The notes: generated from the letters alone by a model not told the origin. Shown: positions 45,817 to 61,991, counted from the stretch's first letter. The stretch is 64,000 nucleotides of DNA from Chlamydiia bacterium (GCA_963804085.1 CAWDOQ010000016.1:32001-96000), one strand, 5' to 3'. Translations and numbers: made by a program.

Positions 45817-46187
45817 GGGGGTGTAAAGGTTTCGACTTAGGGACAAAGTATCAGTGGCATGCGGAGGATGTCGGTTGGCCTCCTTAATCATCCGATAAAA
45901 AAAGAATTGATACTAACGAAGAATATCAATTAGCTGCTTAAGACCTAACAGTCTTAAACGCTCGTGTAATCTAGTGCCTGACCAGGAGCGCTAGAACTAC
46001 ATGTCATCAACCCTGGTATGAACCTGCTCTGTCCTGCTTTTACAGAGTAGAATTCGAGACAGAAAAAGCAAGGCGGCCCGAAGTGGGGCGTCTTTCAGCA
46101 CGGCCGCCTAAAACTACAAAGACGATAAGCATGTAGTCATTGATATAGAGTTTGCTAAGGACGAGAGTTCGATTCTCTCCACCTCCA
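45817..46187 (+). ncRNA. ssrA: tmRNA; tag ORF 45909-45941 encodes (A)DTNEEYQLAA
   Basis: 5' GGGGGTGTAAAGGTTTCGAC; 3' T-arm GAGAGTTCGATTCTCTC followed by CACCTCCA; tag ends LAA-stop. Confidence 0.93.
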
Positions 46188-46226
46188 AAATTCAGACTAA
46201 ACCAAATCAAATAAGATTAAGATCAT

Positions 46227-46260
46227 AAGGGACTTACGGGAAACCGATAAGTCCCTTTTT
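46227..46260 (+). terminator. Intrinsic terminator downstream of ssrA (element-supplied)
   Basis: aagggactta...taagtccc followed by ttttt. Confidence 0.7.
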
Positions 46261-46530
46261 ATTTCTTTAAGCTACTTTTTTCCGGCCAAGTGCGTAAAAT
46301 TTGCGTAATCGAAAACCCTTCGACTGGAGGGACTCATATCGCGTCCTCCTCTCTATCAATTTTTCAAAGAGGAACCATGTCCATAAAACTGAATTTCAAA
46401 CCGAAAACCCTTAAGTATGACCTAAATGCTAAGGATTACTCGCCGCTCATTCTGGGCGAGGCTACCGAACTCATCCCCGATATCGAAAAGTACCGAGAGA
46501 AATTTCCGAACAATTCAAACTGTTTTCTGT

Positions 46531-47130
46531 TTATGTGAAATTGGCATACCCTATGTAGATGGCTGTTGCAATCAATAATAAACCAGTCAAAAGATTAAAT
46601 ATGCGCAAACGAAACCGACTCTTTAATAACAAAGATAGTTTCTCCCCCAAAAATGCCCAAATAGCCAGTGAAATATAACAAATAAAAAAATAGATGCTAA
46701 CGAATGTTAAAAAAGATCCGTAACTTTCTGGGTTAGAAAAGATTGAAACACCAGATACACATGCAATCCATGCTTTAGGATTTACCCACTGAAGCACAAA
46801 GCCTTCATAAAATTTAGGGATATCCGTTTTTTTTACTTTTATTTCAGGATGTGAAGAAGCTATTTTATATCCCATATAAATAATATATAAAACCCCCGCA
46901 ACAGAAATGAAGGTGAGCAGAAATGGGTACGCTTCAATAAATTTTTTAAAAAAAAGTCCCACAAAAAGCAAGAGCAACGTAAAGCCTATCGTTGCTCCTG
47001 ATACATAAGGAATTGTTTTCTTTACGCCATAATCAACACCAGATGAAAGAATAATCATGTTCACGGGTCCTGGGGAAATTGACATTGCTAAAGAAAACGA
47101 AAACATTGCAAATATAAGGGAAAGGGACAT
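46531..47130 (-). CDS. LysE family translocator
   Basis: ISPGPVN and QWVNPKAW motifs. Confidence 0.88.
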   Translation of the reverse strand: MSLSLIFAMFSFSLAMSISPGPVNMIILSSGVDYGVKKTIPYVSGATIGFTLLLLFVGLFFKKFIEAYPFLLTFISVAGVLYIIYMGYKIASSHPEIKVKKTDIPKFYEGFVLQWVNPKAWIACVSGVSIFSNPESYGSFLTFVSIYFFICYISLAIWAFLGEKLSLLLKSRFRLRIFNLLTGLLLIATAIYIGYANFT

Positions 47131-47251
47131 CAGTACTCCTACGTGTTTTCTTTTTCGACTTTGTGTAATTTGGTGATCAACTCGCTACTAGAATCGAGGA
47201 GATCGGAAAAATGCAGGTCAGTCAAATCGAAAGCTATGATGAATGAATCAA

Positions 47252-47662
47252 TCATCTGAGCAACCCCAGCGAACCTGTATATTTATTGACGAGTTTGCGA
47301 TTGCCATAAATGGCGATACCGTAATAGTTCAAGACCTCTTTTGCGCTCTTTTTCAGCTGCGCGGCATATTCCTCATAGGAAGCAGTGTTTGAAGTTGCGT
47401 CAATTAAATCTACCACTGTCAATTCTCCTTCATGAAGTTTAAGCCCCTCCCGAATTTCTTTGAGCTTGCCTGCTCCTTTTAAGACGGGCAGAGGTACAGT
47501 TGTGATCCCCTGATGCTCATGGCCCGAGCCATCCTCTAAATTGCGGCCGACTAAATCGGGGTGGAGCTTGCCAATACTCATCATTAGAACGGCGGCCGAA
47601 TTCACCAACAGACCTAAGGACAGGTTCTCATCTAACACTATAACACATTTATTCTCCGACAT
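47252..47662 (-). CDS. DUF2000-like (PTH2-fold) protein
   Basis: KCVIVLDENL.GL..N.AAV, HQGI...P and VNKYTGSLGLLR pattern. Confidence 0.7.
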   Translation of the reverse strand: MSENKCVIVLDENLSLGLLVNSAAVLMMSIGKLHPDLVGRNLEDGSGHEHQGITTVPLPVLKGAGKLKEIREGLKLHEGELTVVDLIDATSNTASYEEYAAQLKKSAKEVLNYYGIAIYGNRKLVNKYTGSLGLLR

Positions 47663-47752
47663 GCTTCCCCCTGTTTTTTCTCCACTCTACCATGTTGTAG
47701 ATTAAGTGATAATATGCTATAACTTGAATTCACTGTTTTATGAGATCGATCA

Positions 47753-48625
47753 ATGTTTGATGAACTTAGGGCGATTGCCGTCTTCGCCAAAACTATTGAG
47801 ACTGGCTCTTTTAGGGGATGCGCTAAAGCTTTAGGACTATCTCCTTCTGTAGTGAGCCATCACATTGCACAACTCGAGCACAAACTAGGTCTGACCCTTT
47901 TATATCGCTCCACGCGCAAAATGTCTTTAACAGCGGAAGGAGAACAGCTTTATGAAGCATCAAAAAAAATGCTAGAAGCTATCGAATTTGGCCTCGACGC
48001 AATCTTACCAGCAGCAAAAAAGCCTTCTGGAACATTAAAAGTGACTATGCCTTCGATTCTGGTGCGCAGCGGCCTGATGCAGAAAATTGCCCAGTTTTGT
48101 TGTGAGCTTCCGAATGTCAAACTTGATCTCAACTTTACCGATAAAACCGTTGATTTAATAGAAGAGAGGTTCGATATCGGAATTAGGATTGGCACACTCA
48201 AAGAGAGCGGTTTAATGGCAAAAAAATTATTCTCCTTTGGCCGAAAGCTCGTCTGTTCCCCTTTGTTTTTTAAAAAACAGGCCAAGGCTAAAATACCTGA
48301 AGATCTGGGCACTTGGCGTTGGATCGGGACGAGATGCGCCCCTTTGTCGCGCCGGTTTAGAAACAGCGCAGGACAGAGTGTTGTTGTCGACTACCAACCG
48401 AATTTAATGTGCGATTCAGTGGATGCCGCCTACCAGCTTGCCGTTGCAGGGGTCGGTTTGAGTTCGCCTCCCGATTTCTTGGTTGAGAAAGATATCAAAG
48501 AAGGAAAACTCGTGGAAGTTCTTCCGGAATGGCAAATGGAGCCGTTGAATGTCTATGCAATCTGGCCCAAAAACCTCTTAAAAAACAACCTAGCTTCCAG
48601 ATTTAGATGCAGTCTTGCAAGCTAA
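47753..48625 (+). CDS. LysR family transcriptional regulator
   Basis: GSFRGCAKALGLSPSVVSHHIAQLE...LLYRSTR HTH; divergent from DUF2000/LysE. Confidence 0.92.
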   Translation: MFDELRAIAVFAKTIETGSFRGCAKALGLSPSVVSHHIAQLEHKLGLTLLYRSTRKMSLTAEGEQLYEASKKMLEAIEFGLDAILPAAKKPSGTLKVTMPSILVRSGLMQKIAQFCCELPNVKLDLNFTDKTVDLIEERFDIGIRIGTLKESGLMAKKLFSFGRKLVCSPLFFKKQAKAKIPEDLGTWRWIGTRCAPLSRRFRNSAGQSVVVDYQPNLMCDSVDAAYQLAVAGVGLSSPPDFLVEKDIKEGKLVEVLPEWQMEPLNVYAIWPKNLLKNNLASRFRCSLAS

Positions 48626-48714
48626 TTCTGATCAATATGTCCTGTGTGCACCGCTTGTTATAAGAGCCGTATACCATCTTCTTCCAGGGGATTACAATGA
48701 ATGGTGTTCTATGC

Positions 48715-48966
48715 TTAAGACTCTTGAAATTGAAATAATACATCTTTGCTAGTTTTGATGAGTTCCATTACCTCTTTATGCTTTGCCTTGGCTTCTTTGG
48801 TATAACCCCCATGCTTGATAACAGAGCGACGTGCCCTTTCTTTGCCTGCTTGAGATCTAGGCCCTCTAGAACGCCCACCGTGCATCCGACAGGTTGACTT
48901 CTTCCGGATAGCCCAATTTCGACATTGCCGTCTTGATCTTTTGCTGGTAGCTGTACACTGTCCCAT
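48715..48966 (-). CDS. HGGxSTG-domain protein
   Basis: C.A.SKR....C........CRMHGGRSRGPRS..GK.......KHG. Confidence 0.8.
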   Translation of the reverse strand: MGQCTATSKRSRRQCRNWAIRKKSTCRMHGGRSRGPRSQAGKERARRSVIKHGGYTKEAKAKHKEVMELIKTSKDVLFQFQES

Positions 48967-48978
48967 GATGCAAGGGGT

Positions 48979-49608
48979 TTAATCCAAGGATTTTTTCCCA
49001 ATCCCTCCCCCAGCCGCCGAAACGTTCTGAGCAACAATTGCCTGCCCCTCATTGTAAACATGGACTACTTGCACGGTTTGTTGCCCCTTGGATCGATATT
49101 TCAACAGGGCTTGCATAGTCTGATTTGCCACGTTGAAGAGTTTGGTCGCTAAATTGATGTAGCGCTCTATATGGTAAAAACCCTCTTGAAAGTGAGCTTG
49201 GCGTAAGCAGTCCATAGCCGAGTTTTGCAAAGTCAAAAATTGTCCTGCAAGGAGTGCCTCAGTCTCATCTTGTGGCCTGAGCGTTGGAAGCAAAGAGGAC
49301 ATGCGTGTCAAGCGCTGTTCTTCCGTCGAGTCACACATACCACGGGATACTTGAGCAAGCAGAGCAACGGAATAGTTGAAATCACCAGTACCCGTTGTTT
49401 TTTTGAAAGCCTCAACAAACCGTCCCTTTGATTCGTGGGTCAGTCTCGTACCATCTGACAAAACTAAATCCAACTGCCCCTTGCTTGATTTATCATCCGA
49501 TCCTTTCTGAAATTTTAGGGATGGCCCTAACGGCTCTACACTCATCGGTAACTTTTGCGTAAGGTCAGCATTAACAACAGCCTTTTGCTCTTGTACATTC
49601 TCTTTCAT
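48979..49608 (-). CDS. Hypothetical mobile-element protein
   Basis: PQDETEALLAGQ...L.KYR.KGQQTVQVVHVYNEGQAIV; sits directly upstream of the HGGxSTG gene. Confidence 0.6.
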   Translation of the reverse strand: MKENVQEQKAVVNADLTQKLPMSVEPLGPSLKFQKGSDDKSSKGQLDLVLSDGTRLTHESKGRFVEAFKKTTGTGDFNYSVALLAQVSRGMCDSTEEQRLTRMSSLLPTLRPQDETEALLAGQFLTLQNSAMDCLRQAHFQEGFYHIERYINLATKLFNVANQTMQALLKYRSKGQQTVQVVHVYNEGQAIVAQNVSAAGGGIGKKSLD

Positions 49609-49864
49609 ATTTTTCGCTCCCTCGGTAACGCTTCAAAGTTACCGCTTAACAGTTTCATAAATAATATATTACACATGTCGGTAGCTGGTAACATCAACTT
49701 ACACCTGTTCTTTGCACAATGTGGCAGTAACCTTAACCCGCGCCTCCCTTTCGCTTTGCCACAGACATTCTCTGCTACCGCGCTACCGAAAAAACATAAC
49801 AATCTAAAAAAACAATACATTACACCTAAAAATCAAGCGTTACTCTGGGGTAACATAGTAGCGC

Positions 49865-51781
49865 TCACACTCCCAAAACCCGTTCCACAGGAATCAAGAC
49901 ACACCGCTGATTGACACCGGCCATTTTCACCTGGGCACTCCCGACTGCTCCTTCGATCCTTGCTAAAGGACTTCGGATGTCCAAGACAGCGTACTCCGTA
50001 TCCTTGAGCAGATGCCTCGTCACACTCTCACATCGAAGTGCCAAAAAATCTTTCGATTTGTGCATTACGATTTTCAGTCCGTGCCGCTCTAATTCATCAA
50101 CATAGCGCCCGGCTTTTTGTAGCATCTCCCCGACAGAAACCTTGTTGCCTTCGACATAAATAAGGCTCGCTAAAATCGTATCAAGGAGCTTATCACCGTC
50201 ATCTTCTGATTGAAGGGTCGCCCATCTTGGAAAAATATCCTCTATTCCCTCAGGGGCCGCTATCGCTAACAGCGCAGAAGCATACATGAAGTTTTCCACA
50301 GTACGAACCTCGATCCCCTGCTGCTCTTGTATGAATACCTGTCGATCTGCATTGATCTCTTGCGCCTTTGCCTCAATCTCAAGCCACGCAAGAATCATTG
50401 TCACCACGATTTTGGCTGCAATAACAGCCCCTTCTCCAACACCAAATCGTTCAAGAGGAGGCGAAGCATTCGTCAGCTTTTTCAGCTCAAATTTGATCAT
50501 CCTCGATTCCTGTGCTGCATCCTGCATGACCTTCTTAGGCAAATAGATCGACCCGAACCAAGGTATGTGATGCAAATGAAACCGATGTGCCTTATCAGAC
50601 CCCGTGCCGCTGGTTTTTTGACCACCTCGGTTGAAGAGTTTAGCCAGCTCAAGGATGTCTGGAATATGCTTATGCTTCTCGAACTCGTCGAACACGGGAA
50701 TGCGACCGCTGTTGCCGATGGTTTGGGCAGTAGCATGTGCCGTACTCTTATCCAAACGCTCAACTTGCCCGCCATAGATGCCCTGCAAAATGTCCTCGAA
50801 AAAAGTGGACTTGCCGGTTGACTTCGCCCCCGTTAGATAAATCCAAGGCCGCCAGGGCATGGCTTGTTGCATAATCGACAACATGACAAAAGCCGTTACA
50901 AAGGCACTCATTGATGGGTCTAACCAATTCCACTGTTTTACCCTGGCATAAATAAGACTGAAAACGCTCTTTAGGTCGCTCTGCTCCATTCGCATAGCCT
51001 CTTCAACTATTGACCAATTCAACCAAGACGCCCCTTCTGTTTCGATCAATTTACCTTCAAAGATAGGCTCTTCGAGATACTGCAACCGATTTCCTTCGAC
51101 AATGGCAGCTTTCTTGCCAGAGATAATCAACCACCTCTTATTGATGTACCAAACACCCGCTTTCAAAGGCGCCTGATCGTCGATAAATCCCTTCTTATGC
51201 GCCGTGTCGATCAGTTGGAGCTTGAGTGCCTTTTCTGCACCCTCCTCCCGAAACCATTCGGAATCGCCCCCAACGTAGAGCCGAAGTTCATCCTTGTTCA
51301 ACCTCCCTGCAGGAAGCGCTATGAGACGTCCATCCTTCCAAATCAAAATCTCGCGTTGGGCATTATGGCCAAGGACATAGAAAGGTAGCTTGACCTCCGT
51401 CTCTTCAGCCATCTCAAGCAACCGCACACTATTCCGCAGCTCTATGATTTCTTCCATCAAAACACCCTGCTCTTTGTCGCGGACATCCAATTGTTCCGAC
51501 CTCATTTTTACGTCAGGGTCTTCTAGAGAAAGTCCTCTTGCCTCCATCTCGCGTTCAAAGGCCGTGCGATCAACGAGCAAGGCGGTAGATTCAACGTAAT
51601 GCCTCTTCTCCAAGATATCGATTTGCGTCCATACTTTGTCCGCTTGTTGACCTCTCTCATCCTTGCAAAAATAGTCATCCTGAAAAGACGTTAAGGTAAC
51701 ACCAATGTGCTTCTCATTTAAAAATGCTTCAATCGTCTCTTTAGTCCTCGAGGGACAGCTCCACGCTCCTGCTGCCATCAT
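49865..51781 (-). CDS. Replication helicase/primase-associated P-loop ATPase; N-terminus probably extends to 51920 across a frameshift
   Basis: WRPWIYLTGAKSTGKST Walker A; PVFDEFE Walker B; ESR arginine-finger-like. Confidence 0.7.
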   Translation of the reverse strand: MMAAGAWSCPSRTKETIEAFLNEKHIGVTLTSFQDDYFCKDERGQQADKVWTQIDILEKRHYVESTALLVDRTAFEREMEARGLSLEDPDVKMRSEQLDVRDKEQGVLMEEIIELRNSVRLLEMAEETEVKLPFYVLGHNAQREILIWKDGRLIALPAGRLNKDELRLYVGGDSEWFREEGAEKALKLQLIDTAHKKGFIDDQAPLKAGVWYINKRWLIISGKKAAIVEGNRLQYLEEPIFEGKLIETEGASWLNWSIVEEAMRMEQSDLKSVFSLIYARVKQWNWLDPSMSAFVTAFVMLSIMQQAMPWRPWIYLTGAKSTGKSTFFEDILQGIYGGQVERLDKSTAHATAQTIGNSGRIPVFDEFEKHKHIPDILELAKLFNRGGQKTSGTGSDKAHRFHLHHIPWFGSIYLPKKVMQDAAQESRMIKFELKKLTNASPPLERFGVGEGAVIAAKIVVTMILAWLEIEAKAQEINADRQVFIQEQQGIEVRTVENFMYASALLAIAAPEGIEDIFPRWATLQSEDDGDKLLDTILASLIYVEGNKVSVGEMLQKAGRYVDELERHGLKIVMHKSKDFLALRCESVTRHLLKDTEYAVLDIRSPLARIEGAVGSAQVKMAGVNQRCVLIPVERVLGV

Positions 51782-51984
51782 GCCAATGACAACCGGCCGC
51801 CTTTAAATCATCCTTTACCACCTTTAAAGCCTTCACTGCCCCTTTCTTAGGTTGGATCAAAAAGGCCTTTGCCGATATTGGGTCTGGTGGTGTATCCGTA
51901 GGTGTAGTATTATTGGTCATTAAAAATCTCGTTCTTGTGGTTGATAAAAGTCCCTCCCAAGTTGACGCTTGGGAGGAACAAGGC

Positions 51985-52146
51985 TTAAAGTCCTAAGATT
52001 TCAGCCACTTTGCGCGCTTCAGTTTCGTACTTTTCTGGGCACTGACTGAGGCGCTTTTTTTGCCATTCGTATTCGATCCAGACACTTTTACGAGTGCTGT
52101 GCACAACCCGATTGTATCTTGATCTTTCCTGACATTTCCTTAGCAT
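51985..52146 (-). CDS. Small hypothetical protein (53 aa, below the ORF-track cutoff)
   Basis: SD ggagg; MLRKCQ...WIEYEWQKKRLSQCPEKYETEARKVAEILGL*. Confidence 0.5.
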   Translation of the reverse strand: MLRKCQERSRYNRVVHSTRKSVWIEYEWQKKRLSQCPEKYETEARKVAEILGL

Positions 52147-52411
52147 CCTCTACCTCCTTTATGGGCATATTGGTTTTGAGTTGAGAAAGACGAGCCAAAC
52201 AGGCATCCCATGCAACCTGATCGATAAGAACCCGTCTGTGATATCTGAGAATAGCGGAGGCAAAAGGACTTTGCGCCCCTTGTTGAACGATGGCACGCAC
52301 TGCGTGCTCGCTAGAAGGCCATGCCCCCGTCTCACGGTTTTTTTGGCAAAACTCGCGTACAGTGCGAACGATTTTGTTATTGGTAATTTCTAATGTTTGA
52401 ATTGTTGTCAT
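52088..52411 (-). CDS. Putative excisionase-like DNA-binding protein
   Basis: TVREF...WPSSEHAVR...RRVLID winged-helix-like pattern; position within the element. Confidence 0.55.
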   Translation of the reverse strand: MTTIQTLEITNNKIVRTVREFCQKNRETGAWPSSEHAVRAIVQQGAQSPFASAILRYHRRVLIDQVAWDACLARLSQLKTNMPIKEVEDAKEMSGKIKIQSGCAQHS

Positions 52412-52713
52412 TACACGCTCCTTTATTTGATTTTTCCGCGTATGCCCTCATTTTACTTATTTTAGGCCAGCGGCAAAGGAGTCGTCTAAAAATAGACGTT
52501 TAAATAGGAGGGGATTGCATAGAGAGGAAAATTTTTATAAAAAATCCCCTCTTCTAAATTTAAACACCCCCCTCTTCGATAGAATAGCCTTTCTTGAAGC
52601 CTAGGCAACGACCGTTTTCCCAATGACGAGGATCGGTTGCTTTGGCCGCTTTAGCATAACGAGAAGACACATCACGGTACAAGTCGAATACCACGAGCTT
52701 TAACCTCTTTATT

Positions 52714-53844
52714 CTATGCGCTGATACTATATTTCGCGATTTCGTTCTGAGAGAGGTTCTTTAGCGCTTGCAACGGAACGTTCTGTACGGCCTGACGCCA
52801 AATTTCCTTGCCAATGGAAAAAAGCACTTTTTGATCGGCTTCTTCTTTCCACGTATGACCATGCGACTTTTTAGCGACATCGGATGAAGCTGGCTCTACA
52901 CTCTCTTGCGAAGTAGATTGTGTTGTTGCTGCACCCGTCTTCGTTCTCTCTGAAAAGAAAAAGAATTGATTGATGACAATATTGACCTGTATGGGAGATT
53001 TTCCATCGTTCGGTGTATCAAACTCAAGCCTTTGCTCGAGCATATACAGAAACCGATCTATCCATTTGATCAATTCGACAATGGATAGAGGATGCTTCCT
53101 AGAGTCGGGCGATCTGAATGCGCTGAGGTAATACCCTACAGTAGCTTGGTATTGCCTCTCCTCCAATTGGAGTAGATTTTTTGGCAAACTATCGATAGTC
53201 GGTCGAGCTGGTAGTGTAAGAGGGGTGAACGTTGGATAGAGAGATAATATTTTCAAAAATCGAAGTAGGCACGGTAGAGAAGTATCCGCCTTTTCTTTCC
53301 ATTGGCGCAACTGTTGATCAGGAGGAAGTGAGTTAAGGCTCTTGTCCACATAATCGGGCCAATCAAAAACCTCCACAGAGCAACCACGCTTTTTCTCGGT
53401 CCGCATCCAACCTTCGAATAGGAGGCAATTTTTTTCTTCTTTGGCAACTTCCGAATACAAGTGTCTGAGTTGAAAAAGAAGGCTGCCAGCATAGCCATTG
53501 GCATTAAGAGACAGGGTATGAAAGTTGAGCAGCGCGTTTACATCAGCCATTGCAAATGAGTCAGGCGCCCATTTGACGTGCGGCAACAAAATTTTGATTT
53601 TCTCATGGAACCATGCCACGGCTTTTTCGAGATTTTCAAAAGCAATGCGATCTTCTTCTGCTAGCTCGGTTTCTGCGGAAGCTATGATACAATCGATATG
53701 GGGCTGGCGGCGAACCTTTGCAATGAGAACCCCGAGATGGGTTAGCGCCCCTCCAATCGTTTCCGAGGTTTTGATGAGGTTGAATTCCGTAGAGATCGCA
53801 TCTCGTAAACAGCGCCTATCCTTTTGCTTCGCTTCCATTGCCAC
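52714..53844 (-). CDS. Hypothetical protein coupled to the integrase
   Basis: 376-aa ORF starting 2 bp after the integrase stop. Confidence 0.55.
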   Translation of the reverse strand: MAMEAKQKDRRCLRDAISTEFNLIKTSETIGGALTHLGVLIAKVRRQPHIDCIIASAETELAEEDRIAFENLEKAVAWFHEKIKILLPHVKWAPDSFAMADVNALLNFHTLSLNANGYAGSLLFQLRHLYSEVAKEEKNCLLFEGWMRTEKKRGCSVEVFDWPDYVDKSLNSLPPDQQLRQWKEKADTSLPCLLRFLKILSLYPTFTPLTLPARPTIDSLPKNLLQLEERQYQATVGYYLSAFRSPDSRKHPLSIVELIKWIDRFLYMLEQRLEFDTPNDGKSPIQVNIVINQFFFFSERTKTGAATTQSTSQESVEPASSDVAKKSHGHTWKEEADQKVLFSIGKEIWRQAVQNVPLQALKNLSQNEIAKYSISA

Positions 53845-53846
53845 TC

Positions 53847-54911
53847 CTAATTCAATAAATTTGCCTGTGTGCGTTCCATCACGTTTGCGATGTGCTTTTG
53901 GCTATAGTGGGCATACCGCCTAGTCATTGTCGGCGTTTTATGTCCCAGAATGGCCATTAATTCCCCTTGCGTCGCGCCACTCATTGCTAAAAAAGACGCA
54001 GCAGCATGCCTGAGGTCGTGAAACCGAAAATTTGGAATTTTTGCTCGATGAAGAGCTTTTACAAACGCATTCCGAATGTCTACCAACCCTGATCGATTGG
54101 TTGGACTGGTCGGTTTGAAAATTAGACCAGATGCTATATCGGTCTTCTGCCAATTGACCAAAATCTTTTCTACCGTATCAGTTAAAGGGAGAATTCTTCT
54201 TTCCCCATTTTTTGTTTTTTCAAGAGTGATAGTCCGATTCTGACGATCGACGTCTTCCCACTTCAATCCAACAATTTCTCCAAATCGCATGCCTGTCAAA
54301 AGCGCCAAAGAAACAATAGGAAAAAGATGGGGATTAGGGGAAAGCTTGCATTCTTGTAAAAGACGATCTTTCTCCTCTAAACTAAGAAGACGATTCCTTC
54401 CATTCCCTTCAGATGGCTTTGAGACTTTTCTCATGGGGGTATCATCAATCCAGCCCCACTCTTTCATCGCAATAGTCAAAGCCCTGGAAAAAGCAGCTAA
54501 ATATCGATTCACCGTCGCTGGGTTTCGTAATTTTTGCCTAGTAGTGACCTCCGAGAGCAAAGCATCTCTCGCTTCAGCGATAACGGCTGGAGTTAAATCC
54601 GCTAGGAGCAAATGGCCAAGCCTCTCTTTCCACCAAGCAAGATAAGCCGTTTGTCTCACTACCCTATCAGGAAACTGTGGCAACCACTGAGAAATGAATC
54701 TATCTATTAAATCTTTAACTGTGTGCTTTTTGGCTTCGGCGATTCGAAAATGCCTACCGTCTCGAATCGACGATTCCGTGTCTTGAATCCATTTCTTTGC
54801 TAATGTCCTGGTTCGGAAATTCTCCCTTTGAGGAGGGTAACCTTTTAGGCGGACTTCTGCATGGTAAGTGATTGTTCCGTCGTCCTTCTTGTACTCCCGA
54901 ATTGTTGCCAT
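53847..54911 (-). CDS. Tyrosine recombinase/phage integrase
   Basis: TGMRFGE, KTKNG, HDLRH and LGHKTPTMTRRY catalytic residues. Confidence 0.93.
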   Translation of the reverse strand: MATIREYKKDDGTITYHAEVRLKGYPPQRENFRTRTLAKKWIQDTESSIRDGRHFRIAEAKKHTVKDLIDRFISQWLPQFPDRVVRQTAYLAWWKERLGHLLLADLTPAVIAEARDALLSEVTTRQKLRNPATVNRYLAAFSRALTIAMKEWGWIDDTPMRKVSKPSEGNGRNRLLSLEEKDRLLQECKLSPNPHLFPIVSLALLTGMRFGEIVGLKWEDVDRQNRTITLEKTKNGERRILPLTDTVEKILVNWQKTDIASGLIFKPTSPTNRSGLVDIRNAFVKALHRAKIPNFRFHDLRHAAASFLAMSGATQGELMAILGHKTPTMTRRYAHYSQKHIANVMERTQANLLN

Positions 54912-55247
54912 GATCCTCCAGATGCAAATGGATCATTCTAGAAAACACTGGAATAAACAGCAACAAGAGACGAATATTCTCACAGCCTTCAAGATGCATA
55001 TACCTGATATTCAATGATAAATAGATATTGCTATGTGCTGATTACGCACTTATTACGCATTACAAGAATGTTTTACCATGTCCTATCGCAAGGATTCCAG
55101 AGGGAGATGCTAAATCTCCGAAAAACGAGTTGTTAAAATTCCTATCCTTGTATACCATCGTATTTAGCTGTTTTTGAGACACTTACAATATTTTGTGTTA
55201 AACTTTTAACGCTACGGATGTTAAAGACCGAAGGGAAGGGATGTTAA

Positions 55248-56405
55248 ATGACAAAGGCCGAATTTAAACACTATGACTTGACTTTGGTAGAGCCTACTTT
55301 TGACTCTCCTCTAACAGACCTTATTATCGATTTGAACCATCTTCGGAAAAAACGTTTAGATGGGACGACTCCTTCCCAGGTTTTTTTCAATCTCAAGAGC
55401 ATTTTCCATATGCTGGAGAGTATCGGCTCGGCGCGCATCGAGGGAAATAACACTTCGCTTCTTGAGTATATAGAGACCAAGCTGGAAGAGAAGGTTGATG
55501 TGCCTATGGGAGTCAAAGAGATCCAAAACATCGAAAGTGCCATGGATTTCATTGAAAACAACGTAAAAAAGCATCCGATCAATCGAGCTTTTGTCAGCGA
55601 AATTCATAGGATGGTTGTCGAGGGATTACCCACTTCGCCAAAGGGAGAGGGGGATAAAACTCCAGGTCAATACAGGAAGTCAAATTTACAAATCACAAAA
55701 TCTAAGCATCTACCGCCAGAGTGGGTACTCGTTGATGAATATATGAATGAATTATTCGACTTCATCAATCAGGACAGCGGCGCAAAATTCGATCTGTTAA
55801 AAACAGCGATTGCTCACCATCGATTCGTATGGATACATCCATTTGGCAATGGCAACGGACGGACAGTACGTTTATTCACTTACGCAATGTTGATCAAGCT
55901 CGGCTTCAATGTAAACGTAGGGAGAATCATCAATCCTACGGCCGTTTTCTGTAATCACCGAAATAATTACTACAAGTATCTCGAGCAGGCTGATACTGGA
56001 GAAAAATCGGGCATTCTGGCTTGGTGTGAATACGTACTCCGTGGTCTAAAAGAGGAGATCGAAAAAATCGACAAGCTTCTCGACTATGACTATCTGGCCA
56101 AGGAAATTTTGGTGCCCACAATCAACTATTCTCTCGAAAGAAAGTATATCACAGATGTCGAAGCAAAAATATTGAAAATGGCTGTCGAGAAAAAAATGAT
56201 CCAATCGAGTGACTTAAAAGAGATCTTTCAAGGAAAACACGGCGCAGAACTATCCCGACAAATCAAGAGGCTTGTGGATAAGAAAATGCTTCAACGCATC
56301 GGCTTCAAAGACTACGTCATCAGTTTCGGCGACAACTACCTGCTTCGGGGCATCATGAAGGTGCTGGGAGAAAAGGATTTTCTGCCTCACCTTGATGGAA
56401 AATAG
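55248..56405 (+). CDS. Fic family protein with N-terminal inhibitory motif
   Basis: SARIEGN and HPFGNGNGRTVR motifs. Confidence 0.88.
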   Translation: MTKAEFKHYDLTLVEPTFDSPLTDLIIDLNHLRKKRLDGTTPSQVFFNLKSIFHMLESIGSARIEGNNTSLLEYIETKLEEKVDVPMGVKEIQNIESAMDFIENNVKKHPINRAFVSEIHRMVVEGLPTSPKGEGDKTPGQYRKSNLQITKSKHLPPEWVLVDEYMNELFDFINQDSGAKFDLLKTAIAHHRFVWIHPFGNGNGRTVRLFTYAMLIKLGFNVNVGRIINPTAVFCNHRNNYYKYLEQADTGEKSGILAWCEYVLRGLKEEIEKIDKLLDYDYLAKEILVPTINYSLERKYITDVEAKILKMAVEKKMIQSSDLKEIFQGKHGAELSRQIKRLVDKKMLQRIGFKDYVISFGDNYLLRGIMKVLGEKDFLPHLDGK

Positions 56406-56551
56406 AAGATTTTTCGAGAAAATTTTACTCCAGTTTCACCCTATTGAGTGCGTAAAAATTGCGTAAATGAATGGCATGAAATTTCGAGTTGAGTTGTCTA
56501 TGGAAAATAAATAGATACAAAAAAGCGTTCGATTCTCTCCACCTCCAATCG

Positions 56552-56583
56552 AAAAGGCTAGGCCCACAGGCCTAGCCTTTTTT
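56552..56583 (+). terminator. Intrinsic terminator after attR (probably the pre-insertion ssrA terminator)
   Basis: aaaaggctaggcc...ggcctagcc followed by tttttt. Confidence 0.7.
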
Positions 56584-56800
56584 ATTGGAGGCGAGCAAGC
56601 GAACAGTTTGGCTCGCGAGAAAATCGAGTTCAGCTCGATGTTTTGCCTTGCAAAACCGAAGCGAAAGATCCGCCAGCCGGAAGACTAAGGGGCAACCGCC
56701 CCGAGCGCGAGGGCTTTCCTTAAAGTCAAAAATCAGAATGCAAAATGAGAAGTAAGCCCGGGAAAAGATTGGCCTGTTTAACGATTAGAATAACAATTTA

Positions 56801-57078
56801 AGGCCCGAAGGGCTGCAATACCATAGCCCAGGTCGAAGCGCAGCGGAGGCCTGGGTTTCGGAAAAGTTTATCGAACCATTTTTAGGCCCGAAGGGCTGCA
56901 ATACCACGAGGTCGTAGCGCAGCGGAGGCCGGGATTCGAAAACCTACTTGAGTTGGAGGACGGTATTTTTAATCGATAAGATGAAAATGCTGTCTTAACA
57001 GGACTCCAGATGGATTATTTGTAAACGAGACTTTCGCTGTGCTTCAACCTGGGCTATGATATTATAGCTCTTTGGGCC
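56801..57078. repeat. Second REP/REPIN-like repeat family
   Basis: aggcccgaagggctgcaata at 56801, 56884 and 58147; degenerate inverted copy ending at 57078. Confidence 0.7.
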
Positions 57079-57269
57079 GAAAAACAGGAATCTTTTCTGC
57101 TAAACGGGGAGCTAATTTAAGAAAATTCCTAGTTTTTTCAAGTCAAAGCTTCGAATGGAAAAGGAAAAAGTAAAGCCCAGGCCATTGGAGATAAAATATT
57201 TTAATAGTTATAAAAAAACCGCCTTCAGTAAAAGACAAAGGCAGAAATTTTAATTAATCAGAGAAAATT

Positions 57270-58145
57270 ATGACGTCGATTGTAAAAAACAGTTCAAAAT
57301 TAGCATGGAACGGAATGTTTCAAAAAGTTGGGCACGATATCGATCGGATCGTGACCTCTTATTTGGACGAAAAAGGTTTGAATGTAGCACTTACTGTATG
57401 CAAAAGATGGAGAGACAACACCCCTTTGGCTTCGTTGAAAAAGCGCTGCATCGTCGAATGGCGCAAAGACCAAGCCGCCATTGCCGCTGGTTGCGATGAA
57501 TTGCTAGTCAAATTCTTACGTAGAAATCACATCTGCTTCTGGGACCTGCCTCTTCATCCACACGATTGCTGGCCTACGTAACGACCAAATTGATATGCCG
57601 ATAATCAACAACACGTCTTGTTCAATTGCCAAAGTCTACAGTCGCGCAAGGGATAGTGTGGGGCTCATACTTGCTCTACAAAGCAAAAAAAGCGGGGTGT
57701 TGTAGCGGACCTCTGGAATTTGTCCGCCATCTTGAGAAACTATCGATAGGACATCCACATTATTATCTCCAGGAAAGATCGAACCAGAACCAATATTGAA
57801 CTCCCCCCTCTAGTTTATATAATGCCAGTCAGCCATTTGATGAGATTTACCGCGCATCGCACAGCCTCGAATGACGGCCCGATTTATTTAAAATGGTACG
57901 GTAGCTCTTCTTCGTGCCATTGCTCCTCTTTATCCGACACAAACCAGGAAATTGGCCTTGCTAACAGAGTAATGCACGTTTTGCCCGAAAATTCACCGCC
58001 GATCCCAGACGCTATCCCGCTCTTCCTCCCACGGTCAACCAGCTCTACCACTTTTACCAAGAAAAACATCGTTGCCATCTTGCTTGTCTTATGCCTTGCG
58101 AGCTTCATCCGGTTCCATTGGAATCTTTCCAGAGAAGATTTGTAA
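57270..58145 (+). pseudogene. Fragmented paralog of 59745..60629
   Basis: Near-identical N- and C-terminal segments, interrupted by frameshifts. Confidence 0.75.
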
Positions 58146-58605
58146 AGGCCCGAAGGGCTGCAATAACATAGACCAGGTCGAAGCCTGGGTATTCTCGAAA
58201 ACCCATCTTGAGTCCGGCAAGAGCCACTTGCAAGAATATCTTGCCCCAGAAAAATCGAAGATTTTGAGTCGGTTTGCCGGGGCTGCAAAGCAGCCAGAAT
58301 CCCGCTATTGGGACATACTCGATGAAGAGTAGGACCCCATGGCGGCACGGGAAATGGCTCAAAAGGGCGATTTCGCTGCGGCGGGAATTTTGGAAGTGGC
58401 TCTGTAAGGACGGCATTTCTAATCTCATAGATACTTTTCATCATAATCGACTTGCGCTCGAGCAACATGTTCAAAAAGGCCCGTTCCATTTTCCGTTCAT
58501 TTTTCGCTCTCAAAGTCATTCTTCCATACTTTTCACGCCTAAAAATGTCTTGCAACTCACACAATTTTTGAATATTCTGTGGGGCAACTAAAATAGGGAG
58601 TTGAA

Positions 58606-59678
58606 ATGGATAAAGTTTTTCGTTTTTTTGCGGGCGCGTTAACTATCATTGCATGCGCAGGATTTGCGGAATCTGCTCAGAATCCAAAGATAGATTGTTG
58701 TAAAGCTAGCTGTCCTTCTATTAGGCCTGATCTTAAATGCGATGTGGGGATTTCATTCTCCTCCGATTTTCTCTATTGGCAAACGAGCCAAACTGGGAAC
58801 TGGTATGGCCAGGTTGCTAATTTCCATACGTCGATTCCGAACCCAGCCGGCGGCGACAACAATTTTTTTGGTGATTACAAGAACCCCAAATATAAATTCG
58901 ATCCAGGAGTACGCGTTTCTTTGGGATTTAGACCGCACTATGATCACTGGCAAATCGACTTTGTCTGGACTCACATGAATTCGAAAGCTTTGGGATTTTC
59001 TGATCTCCCTGGGCATTTGAAACCTCGGTCATAATCCCGAATCCTCTTTTTTTCGTTCCTCAAATTCTTAACAATAACAGCGTGAACGCAAACGCTATCT
59101 GGAGATCTAACTACAATACGATCGATTTGGATATCAACAGAGAGATTCCCTTGGGTAAATATTTTGGACTCAAAGGCCACTTTGGTCTTAAAAATCTATG
59201 GCTCAATGAAAAATATCATATTTTTGCCCTCGCCGCTTACACAGCTGAACTTCCCGAACCACTCTTTGTCGTCAATTCCGAATCCAATATGGTGCAAAAG
59301 ATCTGGGGAATAGGTCCTATGGTTGGTTTGGACTCGTATTGGAAGGTCTATAAAGGGTTCAATCTGTTCGGAAAAGCTGCGGTTTCTCTGGTATGGAGCC
59401 ATGTCAAATCTACTGTTTTGGGACAATTTTTTAATGGAACCGAGCCCGTTGTCGTTACAGCTATGACCTCAAATTTCCACACTGTTTTACCTGAGATCGA
59501 TCTAATTGTAGGCGGAGAATACGATATCAACTTTTGCGACAACAGATATCACCTAACTCTCCGGGCCGGATGGGAATTGATCACTCTATTCAATGCAAAC
59601 TTTCTGGGAGCTTCCTACAGTTCACTTGGCGATTTCAACATGAGCGGATTGACTACTGGCTTCATCTTTAATTTCTAG
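58606..59678 (+). CDS. Lpg1974/MOMP-like porin split by a frameshift near 59012
   Basis: FLYWQ and FDPGVRVSLG in frame 1; GIGP, GWE and terminal FNF in frame 2. Confidence 0.75.
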
Positions 59679-59744
59679 AGAGTGTAGTAGACCCGCTTTT
59701 CAGCAAAATACAAAGTGCGAATTTTTAATTAACCTGAGAAAATT

Positions 59745-60629
59745 ATGGCGTCGATTGTAAAAAACAGTTCAAAATCAGCTTGGGATGGAATGTTTCAAAA
59801 AGTCGGGCACGATATTGATCGGATCGTGACCTCTTATTTCGACGTAAAAGATTTGAATGTACTTGCTGTATGCAAAAGATGGAAAGATAACGCCTCTTTG
59901 GCTTCATTGAAAGGGCGCTGTATTCTCGAATGGCGCAAAGACCAAGCCGCCATTGCTGCTGGTTGCAATGAATGGCTAGTCCAATTCTTACGTGGAAATA
60001 ACATCTGCTTCTGGGATCTACCTCTTCATGCACACGATGGCTCTCCCCTACCCAAGACGAAAATTGATATGCCGATAATCAACGGCACATCTTGTTCAAT
60101 TGCCCAATTCAGAAATGGAAGGGATCTTGTGGGGCTCGTGTTTGCTCTACAAAGCAAAAAAAAGGGGTTTATTTTAGCGGACCCTCTGGGATTTGTCAGC
60201 CGCCGTCGTTACGAAAAATTTAAATTGCAATTCACATTACTCTCTCCAGAAAATATTGAACCAGGAACCAACATTGAGAATCCCCTTCAAGTTTATATAA
60301 TGCCAGTCATGGGGGGGACGAGAATGATGATGAAATTTACCGCGTACCACACAGCACCGTGTTGTTTAGATGTTAGTTCTTTAGATGCTTGGGAAGCTCT
60401 TGACGCCATTGCTCCTCTTTTATCCAACACACACCAGGAAATTGGCCTTGCTAACAGAGTAATGCACGTTTTGCCCGAAAATTCACCGCCGATCCCAGAC
60501 GCTATCCCCCTCGTTCTTCCACGGCCAACCAGCTCTACCACTTTCACCAAGAACAACATTGTTGCCATCCTGCTTGGCTTATGCCTTGCGAGCTTCATCC
60601 GGTACCTTTGGAATCTTTCCAGAGAGTAA
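59745..60629 (+). CDS. F-box-like protein with C-terminal TM anchor
   Basis: DIDRIVTSYFDVKDLNVLAVCKRW; hydrophobic C-terminus. Confidence 0.6.
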   Translation: MASIVKNSSKSAWDGMFQKVGHDIDRIVTSYFDVKDLNVLAVCKRWKDNASLASLKGRCILEWRKDQAAIAAGCNEWLVQFLRGNNICFWDLPLHAHDGSPLPKTKIDMPIINGTSCSIAQFRNGRDLVGLVFALQSKKKGFILADPLGFVSRRRYEKFKLQFTLLSPENIEPGTNIENPLQVYIMPVMGGTRMMMKFTAYHTAPCCLDVSSLDAWEALDAIAPLLSNTHQEIGLANRVMHVLPENSPPIPDAIPLVLPRPTSSTTFTKNNIVAILLGLCLASFIRYLWNLSRE

Positions 60630-60793
60630 TCTCCTATCAAAAGTTCTGAATGCATCTCGCAAAACCGAGCGAGGCCGCCGGTCCGGAAGACTAGGGGCAA
60701 CCGCCCCTAGCGCGAGGGCTTCTCTCCAAGCCTCGCAAAAAATAATGACAAAAGGCACACATTAGGCTACACTAGGTTAAAAGGTGGAGGTTG

Positions 60794-61113
60794 ATGCCAA
60801 TTTACATTTTTTCTCCTGAAAAAACCTAGCACTGATAGAAGAGAGAAATATTAGTTTTGATGAAGTGATTGCCGCCATTGAAAATGATCAAATATTGGAT
60901 ATTGTGGAGCACCCGAATAAGCAAAAGTATGGAAATCAAAAAATGTACGTGATTTGGGTAAAAGAATATGTATACCTGGTTCCATTTGTGATTGATATGA
61001 ATGGAGATATCTTCCTTAAAACCATTATCCCAAGCAAAAAGCAAAACGAAAATATATTCAGGAGCACTGATGAAAAAAAGCAGAAAATCGATGCGAAAAA
61101 AACTCGATCCTGA
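60794..61113 (+). CDS. BrnT-like toxin (frameshift in A-run near 60825)
   Basis: MPIYIFSPEK/NLALIEERNISFDEV...HPN..KY..Q...YVYLVPFV...FLKTIIPS. Confidence 0.65.
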
Positions 61114-61360
61114 TGAGAATGATCTCCTATCCTCTTTTGAAAAAGGTGAATGGAAAACAGTAACCAATGTTAAAAAAGAAAAATCGCGTGCACGAAAAGC
61201 TGCAGCAAAAACACTCCGAAAGGACATACGAATTAATATTCGACTATCCAGCAGCGATGTCATGAATATTAAACAAATAGCAGCTTATGAAGGGTTACCC
61301 TATCAAACGCTTATCGCCAGCGTTTTACATAAATATGCTGCAGGGCATTTGGCCCTCTAA
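61070..61360 (+). CDS. CopG/BrnA-like antitoxin
   Basis: INIRLS..D...IK..A..EGLPYQTLIASVLH RHH-like motif. Confidence 0.75.
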   Translation: MKKSRKSMRKKLDPDENDLLSSFEKGEWKTVTNVKKEKSRARKAAAKTLRKDIRINIRLSSSDVMNIKQIAAYEGLPYQTLIASVLHKYAAGHLAL

Positions 61361-61472
61361 TCTTTCTTGTTTGATAGAAGATACAGTGGCTGGCTGGATG
61401 CAACTGCAGTAAAAACTATTTAATTTTCACTTCTTTCCTGTTAAACTTCCCGACTTACACCAAGAGAACAAA

Positions 61473-61991
61473 ATGCCATCTAATACAATCGAAAAAGTTC
61501 AAGCTACAGCCCTCAAAGAATACAAAGCTTTTTTCAAAGAGATTAAAGAAAAAATCCTAACTTCCCAGGTAAAAGCTGCCTTAGCTGTAAATCACGAACT
61601 CATCAATCTTTACTGGGAAATAGGTTCTAAGATTCATCTCAAACAAAAAGATGAAGGCTGGGGTGCCAAGACCGTCGAAAATTTAGCCAAGGACCTCAAA
61701 TCTACCTTTCCAGAGATGAAGGGATTCTCTCTAACAAACATCAAATACATGGTTCAATTCGCAAAGGAATATCCAGAATTTGCAATTAGCCAACAGGTTG
61801 TTGGCCAAATTCCATGGGGTCACAACATCCTTCTCCTTCAAAAACTTGAAACTCTCCAGGATAGGCTCTGGTATGCCCATAAAACAATTGAACATGGATG
61901 GAGTCGAAACGTCTTAATGCATTGGCTAGATAGCGTCTCTCCACCTCCAAGTGAAGAAAGTCAAAAGTCAGAATGCAAAATGCAGAACTAA
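61473..61991 (+). pseudogene. DUF1016/YhcG N-terminal domain, truncated at an att-like site
   Basis: VNHELINLYWEIG, WGAK, GFS..N and IPWGHN motifs; homology ends at tctctccacctccaa. Confidence 0.75.

Follow-up and report, generated by a model that had tools for sequence, protein, structure and literature searches.

A 64,000-nucleotide stretch of DNA from a Chlamydiia bacterium (GCA_963804085.1, CAWDOQ010000016.1:32001-96000; hereafter the window, with positions counted from its first letter) contains, at the transfer-messenger RNA (tmRNA) gene ssrA, an island that we consider likely to be the integrated copy of a small, site-specific and self-replicating hitcher element. Such an element would lack transfer machinery of its own and work like the satellites of the phage-inducible chromosomal island (PICI) type and like tycheposons. 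The reading is based on repeats derived from ssrA, an integrase, near-identical copies of the element with divergent flanks in other hosts, and a conserved backbone around which the cargo is swapped. The window is contig 16 of a host genome (G000) of 2.13 Mb in 24 contigs, with 91% completeness and 5% contamination.

The borders of the island are set by its target gene. The only tmRNA gene found in the window by ARAGORN encodes the tag peptide DTNEEYQLAA, and the last 21 nt of this gene plus one base form the core of a perfect 22-bp direct repeat (46167-46188 and 56527-56548). By our own arithmetic, about 5e-6 perfect pairs of 22-mers are expected by chance inside 13 kb. From one attachment (att) repeat to the other the segment measures 10,382 bp, which verifies the 10.4-kb element with perfect 22-bp att repeats in ssrA that an earlier note, made from the sequence alone, had described. 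Repeats that duplicate the 3' end of the gene and an internal tyrosine integrase are both present, and the segment is an integrative island of the type that targets tRNA and tmRNA genes.

The same backbone adjoins ssrA in 5/400 other sampled Chlamydiota genomes, and its primase/helicase-like ATPase is encoded in 11/401 genomes when G000 is included (counts over related genomes are non-independent here and below, and gene calls in relatives are longest-open-reading-frame calls). The full order integrase, slot protein, 107-amino-acid (107-aa) protein, 53-aa protein, ATPase, 209-aa protein and HGGxSTG protein (HGG protein) is found in 5/7 fetched loci (G169, G202, G132, G117 and G389), the last of which begins at a contig end. 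The copy in G180 misses the 209-aa and HGG genes, and G319 has only a 47%-identical ATPase and integrases of 40-47% identity, beside tRNA-Thr. In 5/7 loci (L017-L021) the element lies beside the tmRNA gene and a chromosomal neighbour of 1043 aa that is 63-70% identical. Both G169 and G180 have paired att repeats, of 24 bp with a spacing of 10.0 kb in the former and of 22 bp with a spacing of 10.7 kb in the latter, and attL alone was found within ~19 kb in G202 and G132. In two other collections, 12/69 loci have matches to the integrase, the 107-aa protein, the ATPase and the 209-aa protein in the same order. The earlier note had proposed related metagenome-assembled genomes as the place to look for the backbone and for helper phages; a homologous backbone was found in them, whereas the host genomes tested yielded no helper.

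These copies also date the element. Positions 48746-56407 of the window are 95.2% identical to locus L032 over 7,667 nt, whereas the flanking gene and ssrA are only 72.8% and 75.2% identical, respectively (blastn), and against the G389 copy the identity is 94.2% as far as attR (blastn). An element that is 94-95% identical between flanks that are 73-75% identical must be far younger in these hosts than the divergence of the hosts themselves, and, judged from these identities, it has evidently moved between hosts in recent time. The backbone does not diverge as a unit: across the ssrA copies the integrase is 90-98% and the ATPase 64-95% identical, and the fast-evolving 376-aa protein of the window is replaced in other copies by a ~20%-identical one. 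This unequal divergence indicates that the backbone is itself mosaic.

Within the island, the backbone genes form a single co-directional block on the minus strand, transcribed toward ssrA in the order integrase, 376-aa protein, 107-aa protein, 53-aa protein, ATPase, 209-aa protein and HGG protein (Table 1). The earlier note had listed these genes as a co-oriented series in this order, but the small open reading frame (ORF) among them, at 51741-51920, belongs to the ATPase gene as its 5' end. The integrase does not lie beside an att site: the Fic gene sits between it and attR, and the operon reads toward ssrA. Cargo is found at both ends of the element. The cargo genes proposed earlier, Fic at one end and the LysR/DUF2000/LysE cassette at the other, were all matched by Pfam, and the G+C content is lowest in the left cargo (0.37-0.39 vs 0.42-0.51 around it). 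A scan of 15 ORFs (ORFs of at least 40 aa were considered) with Pfam, NCBIfam and PHROGs gave no capsid, portal, tail, large-terminase, relaxase or type IV secretion system (T4SS) family, in agreement with the absence of capsid, tail, relaxase and T4SS genes noted before. Neither a capsid protein nor a genome-packaging ATPase, which together would indicate a prophage, was found among these ORFs by Pfam and PHROGs.

Table 1. Features of the ssrA island and its surroundings (window positions).
Feature	Position	Strand	Evidence or remark
ssrA (tmRNA)	45817-46187	+	integration target; ARAGORN
attL	46167-46188	.	22-bp core, ssrA 3' end; perfect repeat with 56527-56548
LysE-family exporter, cargo	46531-47130	-	PF01810, E 8e-20
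DUF2000 protein, cargo	47252-47662	-	PF09391, E 7e-37
LysR-type regulator, cargo	47753-48625	+	PF00126 and PF03466
HGGxSTG protein, 83 aa, final gene of backbone operon	48715-48966	-	NF041373, 36.1 bits vs cut-off 29
209-aa helical protein, family marker	48979-49608	-	no Pfam, NCBIfam or PHROG match
Primase/helicase-like P-loop ATPase gene, whole	49865-51920	-	phrog_35358 'DNA primase', E 9.5e-16
ATPase pieces in this copy: 638-aa ORF; 59-aa 5' piece	49865-51781; 51741-51920	-	1-nt insertion near 51781
53-aa ORF	51985-52146	-	kept in relatives; weak PHROG match only
107-aa putative winged-helix protein, excisionase/AlpA-type	52088-52411	-	profile-profile match, no direct Pfam
376-aa all-helical protein	52714-53844	-	no family match
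Tyrosine integrase	53847-54911	-	PF00589, E 5e-28; phrog_1, E 4e-67
Fic protein, SoFic defence type, cargo	55248-56405	+	PF02661; PADLOC SoFic, E 2.1e-47
attR	56527-56548	.	perfect copy of 22-bp core
Older decayed island in tandem	56549-61950	.	ends at att remnant 61936-61950

The ATPase is the candidate replication protein of the element. Residues 185-371 match the 'DNA primase' family given in Table 1, phrog_21086 is matched as well, and only the P-loop part of the protein aligns, no primase domain being recognised in it. Twelve phage records are matched by tblastn at 21-28% identity (E 4e-8 to 7e-4), of which eight are annotated as primase, primase/helicase or CHC2 zinc-finger protein, two as hypothetical and two not at all. 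In 31 aligned family members the motifs GxxxxGK (318-324) and DEFE (365-368) are invariant, and members of this set are fused to a RepB_primase domain (two) or a Toprim domain (one), while single members weakly match DUF5906 or VapE. The strongest argument for a role in replication is positional equivalence with the helicases and primases of sister elements, which are introduced below. Of the 16 sister loci fetched, 14 were scanned with Pfam between the integrase and the 209-aa gene, and a recognised replication gene occupies the same slot in 12 of these: a DUF5906 helicase with a DnaG-type primase; a DUF3987 helicase, alone or fused to a RepB_primase or an NrS-1-type PrimPol domain; or an AAA_25 helicase fused to a CHC2 zinc finger. 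Two kinds of element have a family A DNA polymerase in addition; in L140 (G153:C6) and L146 (G158:C1) this enzyme, of 638-669 aa and with a 3'-5' exonuclease domain, lies between the helicase and the 209-aa gene, and it is unusual for an integrative element so small. As far as gene content can tell, this pattern shows replication modules that are interchangeable within a fixed frame. The earlier note had made its proposal depend on a relation of the ATPase to replication helicases, and such a relation is seen in its phage primase/helicase relatives and in the equivalent slot of the sisters.

In relatives a single frame encodes the whole ATPase of 684 aa. The gene is split in this copy by one extra base near 51781, which is common to the window and L032 and absent from G169, L051 and contigs of three public runs. 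Because this base gives rise to an ATG right where the frame breaks, a 638-aa protein with all conserved motifs is still possible. The extra base could also be an assembly error. The G389 copy (L026/L023, G389:C1:2758-4669) is decaying, with its ATPase gene in at least four pieces and its 376-aa gene in two.

At the other end of the operon, the start of the 376-aa gene overlaps the stop of the integrase gene by 4 nt, an arrangement of translational coupling. Its product has 54 homologues and no family assignment; the model (predicted local distance difference test, pLDDT, 84) is all-alpha with one hairpin, for which Foldseek against the PDB gave no hit at E <= 0.001 and the VIA wide search nothing informative (best Z 7.5). 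It is possible that this protein is a regulator or a sensor. The 107-aa protein is likely a winged helix of the excisionase/AlpA type, since its profile aligns with that of the small proteins encoded at the same position in sister elements (hhalign 95.8%, E 7.7e-9), two of which are Pfam HTH_17 proteins; three of the positional equivalents have sub-threshold matches to HTH_17, DUF6462 or AlpA. The neighbouring 53-aa ORF is kept at 70-94% identity in related elements (tblastn).

The last two genes of the operon encode the 209-aa and the HGG proteins. The earlier note had spoken of an HGGxSTG pair; the motif is present in one of the two only, the protein matched by NF041373. The 209-aa protein has 181 homologues, none of them functionally named, and is modelled (pLDDT 80) as a helical bundle in which the conserved core is a long hairpin (115-172) with two short strands after it. 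Foldseek against the PDB and BFVD gave no hit at E <= 0.001, and VIA wide only generic hairpins (best Z 9.9 over 66 residues). The earlier note had suggested a comparison with small terminases by Foldseek; for the 209-aa protein, neither sequence nor fold searches gave a match to a small terminase. Look-ups of both proteins in the ESM Atlas returned nothing usable or only unnamed clusters, and when the ATPase, the 209-aa, the 376-aa and the HGG proteins were searched by sequence profile against the PDB, no meaningful match was obtained. Both predicted models are helical and neither resembles a capsid protein. A hidden non-tailed virus of corticovirus-like or pleolipovirus-like kind was considered and rejected, because neither of the large proteins without family is beta-rich and a packaging ATPase is absent.

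The HGG protein is basic, and in an alignment of 19 sequences Cys4, Cys15, Cys26 and His29 are invariant, together with a second HG motif; we infer that the Cys3His set would form a zinc site. A profile built from 19 chlamydial HGG proteins matches the N-termini of four phage proteins (bit scores are quoted for this local hidden Markov model search instead of E-values, which are tied to its small target set): gene 1 of Bacillus phage Flasso, beside an annotated pac site (62.5 bits), gp63 of Rossellomorea phage phiT1, an annotated small terminase directly upstream of the large terminase (TerL) and portal genes (41.2 bits), gp01 of Pelagibacter phage HTVC028P (37.0 bits) and gene 1 of Arthrobacter phage Mimi (30.7 bits). 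The 'terminase small subunit' family phrog_9231 is weakly matched as well (E 4e-4). The guess that the HGG gene lies in the slot where packaging genes usually stand gains some support from this, because the domain is homologous to the N-termini of phage small-terminase or gene-1 proteins. The homology spans the DNA-binding domain only, which falls short of a full small terminase (TerS): the 209-aa profile did not match the remainder of the HGG-bearing phage proteins, and a search for HGG domains within longer proteins was negative. Binding between the 209-aa and HGG proteins is predicted, with a complex score of 0.76 against 0.13 for the best control, a score that is reached by 116/157 solved complexes and 2/215 mismatched pairs. 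The prediction runs have at least 69% of contacts in common with a partner pLDDT of at least 61, and place the C-terminal helix of the HGG protein (55-81) on the hairpin of the 209-aa protein (119-171).

The pair extends far beyond ssrA. The 209-aa gene was found in 85/401 sampled Chlamydiota genomes (65/212 genera), often in several copies, and the HGG_STG model matches in 113/400 genomes (82/212 genera), almost always in open frames of ~70-150 aa. Around 16 further 209-aa homologues, the HGG gene lies directly downstream in 14/16 loci, an integrase match within 7.5 kb in 14/16 and a tRNA gene in 10/16 (Met in five, Leu in two, and Ser, Phe and Asn). Complete sister elements have the order integrase, 200-500-aa protein, 66-108-aa protein, replication genes, 209-aa protein and HGG protein. 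The 209-aa/HGG pair marks a large and apparently undescribed family of small elements. Five metagenome contigs of 6.6-11.8 kb (L059, L060, L061, L093 and L094), closed by terminal overlaps of 112-127 nt, encode distant relatives of the ATPase (28-42% identity) and also carry integrase, HTH_17, ParA, ParE and primase domains; no virion family was found in them, and they appear to be small circular integrative plasmids. The 11.4-kb L055 joins a 53%-identical ATPase, ParA and an integrase with homologues of the 209-aa and HGG proteins. Taken together, these contigs and L055 indicate that the wider family includes plasmid-like circles.

The cargo differs in every copy compared. The left cargo block of the window (46189-48745) was unmatched by blastn in eight related loci, and the Fic protein is 98% identical in the G132 and G389 copies. 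Other copies carry major facilitator superfamily (MFS) or LysE transporters, a metallo-beta-lactamase-fold protein, LD-carboxypeptidase, GNAT, SDR and Cass2 proteins or an ISL3 transposase, and, as defence-type cargo recognised by PADLOC, AbiEi/AbiEii, PDC-S02 (YhcG), PDC-S05 (RhuM), HEC-09 (NYN) or an HNH nuclease. Just beyond the right-hand cargo of the G202 copy (L024:14087-19870), in which no attR was found within ~19 kb, there is a gene for a 1927-aa RHS-repeat protein. A sister element of G092 (L132:8180-9637) has a gene for a Schlafen AlbA_2/HATPase_c_4 protein lodged between its primase and 209-aa genes, which indicates that cargo can enter the backbone too. Downstream of attR in the window, a third att remnant (15/15 nt) points to an older, decayed island in tandem, which contains a Legionella_OMP fragment (59082-59678), a truncated DUF1016/YhcG gene (61473-61991) and two related F-box-like ORFs (57270-57581 and 59745-60629). 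At 56794-56936, just outside attR, lie two copies of a ~80-bp unit, seen as paired repeats of 30 nt and 28 nt that are 79-83 nt apart and 89-93% identical.

In the mechanism proposed here, the integrase and the 107-aa winged-helix protein would excise the element as a circle and reinsert it into ssrA, and the primase/helicase-like ATPase would replicate the circle. The 209-aa and HGG proteins would form a DNA-binding complex in which the C-terminal helix of the latter docks on the hairpin of the former and leaves the Cys3His domain free, and this complex may mark the DNA of the element for packaging, transfer or maintenance. The helical protein coupled to the integrase could regulate or sense, and the cargo, i.e., the exporter cassette and the SoFic-type defence gene, would pay for carriage. 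Several observations weigh against this picture. No iteron or tandem array and no origin was found in the backbone, in which short repeat pairs at 52523-52577 and 55038-55059 are the only repeats. The ATPase has no Pfam or NCBIfam match and none of the P4-alpha Pfam domains, and its profile aligned with the DUF5906 helicases of the sister elements at Walker A only (probability 11%) and not at all with DUF3987. Replication of this copy may be poor or may fail altogether, because the ATPase gene is frameshifted. For the 107-aa protein, Pfam gave no direct match even at E up to 5, and binding between the 209-aa and HGG proteins is a prediction only. All genomes used are metagenome-assembled, and neither excision junctions nor a circular form were seen in the contigs of four public runs (contigs only, at best 27% of words), which contained related backbone fragments and joints with sides of only 20-21 nt, away from the att core. 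Among the runs listed, none was of RNA.

An element without particle or conjugation genes must borrow a vehicle, possibly a phage. In one reading, a narrower form of the hitcher interpretation, the island is a true phage satellite that is induced by a tailed helper phage of chlamydiae; the 209-aa/HGG pair would be a two-chain small-terminase-like factor that feeds the TerL and capsids of the helper, and the variable protein on the integrase side would sense it. The match of the HGG profile to phage TerS and gene-1 N-termini and the weak hit to phrog_9231 favour this reading, as does the set of integrase, AlpA-like protein and primase/replicase, which corresponds to a 'Type C PICI' of SatelliteFinder, and the defence-type cargo between integrase and att, which the available text of the same paper notes for PICIs (de Sousa et al. 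2023, PMC10085698). Tailed phages have also met chlamydiae, as a Terminase_6N large terminase (phrog_979, E ~1e-160) is encoded in 32/401 Chlamydiota genomes (25/212 genera). These TerL loci look like decayed prophages: in G202 (L162, G202:C2:1644500-1664400) and G111 (L163, G111:C1:797500-817400) a cassette of ParB-methyltransferase, 162-aa protein and TerL is interrupted by insertion sequences, and the G111 locus has a portal fragment and a Holliday-junction resolvase as well. However, no helper was found. In six host genomes of the ssrA element, tested in sets of five with controls found in each search, PF03354, PF05065, PF04466, PF04860 and PF05876 each gave 0/5 and PF03237 gave 1/5, a TerL remnant in G202, although at 91-96% completeness such absence is not proof. 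No HGG domain is present in 13 chlamydial TerL loci, the HGG motif was not found in the 162-aa gene that precedes the common chlamydial TerL, and among the HGG matches listed none lies within 3 kb of a TerL match (the nearest, in G107, is 19 kb away). By our own count, TerL and the 209-aa gene occur together in 8 genomes, with 6.8 expected, which is no enrichment, and a scan of IMG/VR viral contigs with the ATPase alignment gave no relative. The restriction of the phage homology to the DNA-binding domain, with the rest of those phage proteins unmatched by the 209-aa profile, and the plasmid-like company of the distant ATPase relatives, on small circular contigs with ParA and toxin-antitoxin genes, speak against a satellite too, and we hold this reading to be plausible, though less likely than not. 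The earlier suggestion of an undescribed satellite that implies a helper is borne out in part: a search of the literature on chlamydial islands, satellites and integrative elements found neither this family nor the HGGxSTG domain described, and no helper was found in the hosts tested. About as probable is the wider proposition that the 209-aa/HGG pair is a two-chain small-terminase analogue and that the elements with this pair, present in about a fifth to a quarter of the sampled Chlamydiota genomes, are a phylum-wide family of phage satellites. If true, it would mean that tailed phages of obligate intracellular chlamydiae exist in large numbers and have escaped notice, and that there is a new module for hijacking packaging.

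Alternatively, the element could be an integrative plasmid or gene shuttle that needs no helper: the replicated circle would spread as naked or vesicle-borne DNA within shared host cells and then integrate, and the 209-aa/HGG pair would be an origin-binding, partition or transcription factor with no part in packaging. The five closed contigs with distant ATPase relatives, ParA and ParE and no virion family, and L055 with its homologues of both marker proteins, argue for this, as does the lack of helper and conjugation genes in the host genomes tested (PF03237 in G202 excepted). Against it, the ssrA-type backbones are without ParA or toxin-antitoxin maintenance genes, a circular form of the chlamydial elements themselves was not seen, and we know of no competence or vesicle transfer in these uncultured hosts. 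A parallel exists in the cargo-carrying tycheposons, which have the same hallmark set and use of tmRNA and, according to the available text of the preprint, are enriched in vesicles and were not found in phage fractions (Hackl et al., bioRxiv 10.1101/2020.12.28.424599); we regard a shuttle of this sort as slightly more probable than a satellite, though still less likely than not. Mobilisation by a conjugative T4SS encoded elsewhere, i.e., an integrative mobilisable element as the earlier note had also considered, would fit the small size and the integrase with an excisionase-like gene, and conjugative T4SS genes are reported on some chlamydial plasmids and islands in the text available of Köstlbacher et al. 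(PMC7846284). It is nevertheless very improbable, because relaxase and coupling-protein families are absent from the ORFs of the element and the conjugation hallmarks PF02534, PF03135, PF03432 and PF11130 each gave 0/5 in the hosts that carry it. Finally, the family may be mobile and this copy a stranded relic, with replication blocked by the frameshift in the ATPase gene and the island left to decay like its downstream neighbour. The insertion common to L032 and absent from the other relatives compared, the fragmented G389 gene and the decayed island in tandem are in line with this; perfect att sites, an intact integrase, the new ATG at the break and the chance of an assembly error make it improbable. 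The reading of a site-specific, self-replicating hitcher element remains the preferred one.

Chlamydiota are obligate intracellular bacteria. According to the text available of the literature surveyed, their known mobile DNA consists mainly of plasmids, a few conjugative islands and small single-stranded phages. Small, recently moving islands in 85/401 sampled genomes (65/212 genera) would give the phylum a major channel of gene flow that has gone unreported so far, ferrying defence genes, transporters and other cargo. The family also places the HGGxSTG domain and the 209-aa protein, both of them orphan families, in a first context and shows replication modules swapped inside a fixed frame. 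A question that it raises is whether tailed phages prey on chlamydiae and are in turn exploited by the islands, or whether no particle is needed for the islands to travel.

The nearest described kind of element is the tycheposon of Prochlorococcus, of which PICI-like and cargo-carrying subtypes are described, the former found in viral fractions and the latter in vesicles (Hackl et al., bioRxiv 10.1101/2020.12.28.424599, as far as its available text goes). Like tycheposons, the ssrA element is small, integrates at tRNA or tmRNA genes and encodes a tyrosine recombinase, a putative excisionase and a primase/helicase-like protein, a likeness that concerns the architecture, and it shares with them variable cargo, decayed remnants that accumulate as islands beside the target gene and the lack of conjugation genes. 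It differs in phylum and lifestyle, being found in obligate intracellular Chlamydiota, and in its conserved 209-aa/HGG pair and integrase-coupled helical protein, which are not part of tycheposons as described in that text. In addition to chlamydial plasmids, Köstlbacher et al. (PMC7846284) describe a set of T4SS genes and another of phage origin to which a terminase belongs; small tRNA- or tmRNA-integrated elements are not described in the available text. A further likeness is to class (iii) of the integrated elements of Kazlauskas et al. 2018 (PMC5862659), which, in the text available, lie between att repeats at tRNA genes (at a tmRNA gene in one case) and encode primase-helicases (DUF3987, VirE, DUF927) without phage and conjugation genes; the ssrA element likewise combines att-flanked integration at an RNA gene and a primase-helicase-type gene with an absence of phage and conjugation genes. 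That study is centred on archaeo-eukaryotic primases (AEP) and, in the same text, reports only RepE/RepS-family primases in Chlamydiae.

As the earlier note had pointed out, size and gene order do resemble PICI and P4 satellites, and so does the lack of virion and conjugation genes. With PICIs as modelled in SatelliteFinder the element shares the integrase, a primase/replicase (by the phrog_35358 match) and, as a candidate, the AlpA-type regulator, as well as a size of ~10 kb, the absence of structural and lysis genes, accessory or defence genes between att and integrase, and a small protein whose DNA-binding domain is akin to small-terminase N-termini (de Sousa et al. 2023, PMC10085698, in its available text). 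By the logic of that tool it is at most a 'Type C' PICI, a level that the same text calls ambiguous; satellites are placed there mostly in Proteobacteria and Firmicutes, and the word stem 'chlamydi' is absent from the main text available. Unlike in PICIs, no more than three of the five core components can be recognised, neither a full TerS nor a Ppi/Rpp or capsid-morphogenesis gene was found, the backbone is a single co-directional block without a divergent repressor switch, and no helper is known. Like P4, the element has a small, basic protein of putative zinc type. In P4, Delta/Ogr is a zinc-finger activator. Psu, Sid, Delta and Epsilon were not matched among the 15 ORFs by Pfam or PHROGs, and the ATPase differs from the P4 replication protein in its domains, as described above. 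P4 and P4-like satellites have a median size of ~10 kb (PMC10085698, available text) and share with the ssrA element an integrase, a putative AlpA-like protein and a primase-helicase-type replication protein. Features of its own, by comparison with these kinds, are the 209-aa and HGG proteins as a conserved pair and a helical protein whose gene is coupled to that of the integrase.

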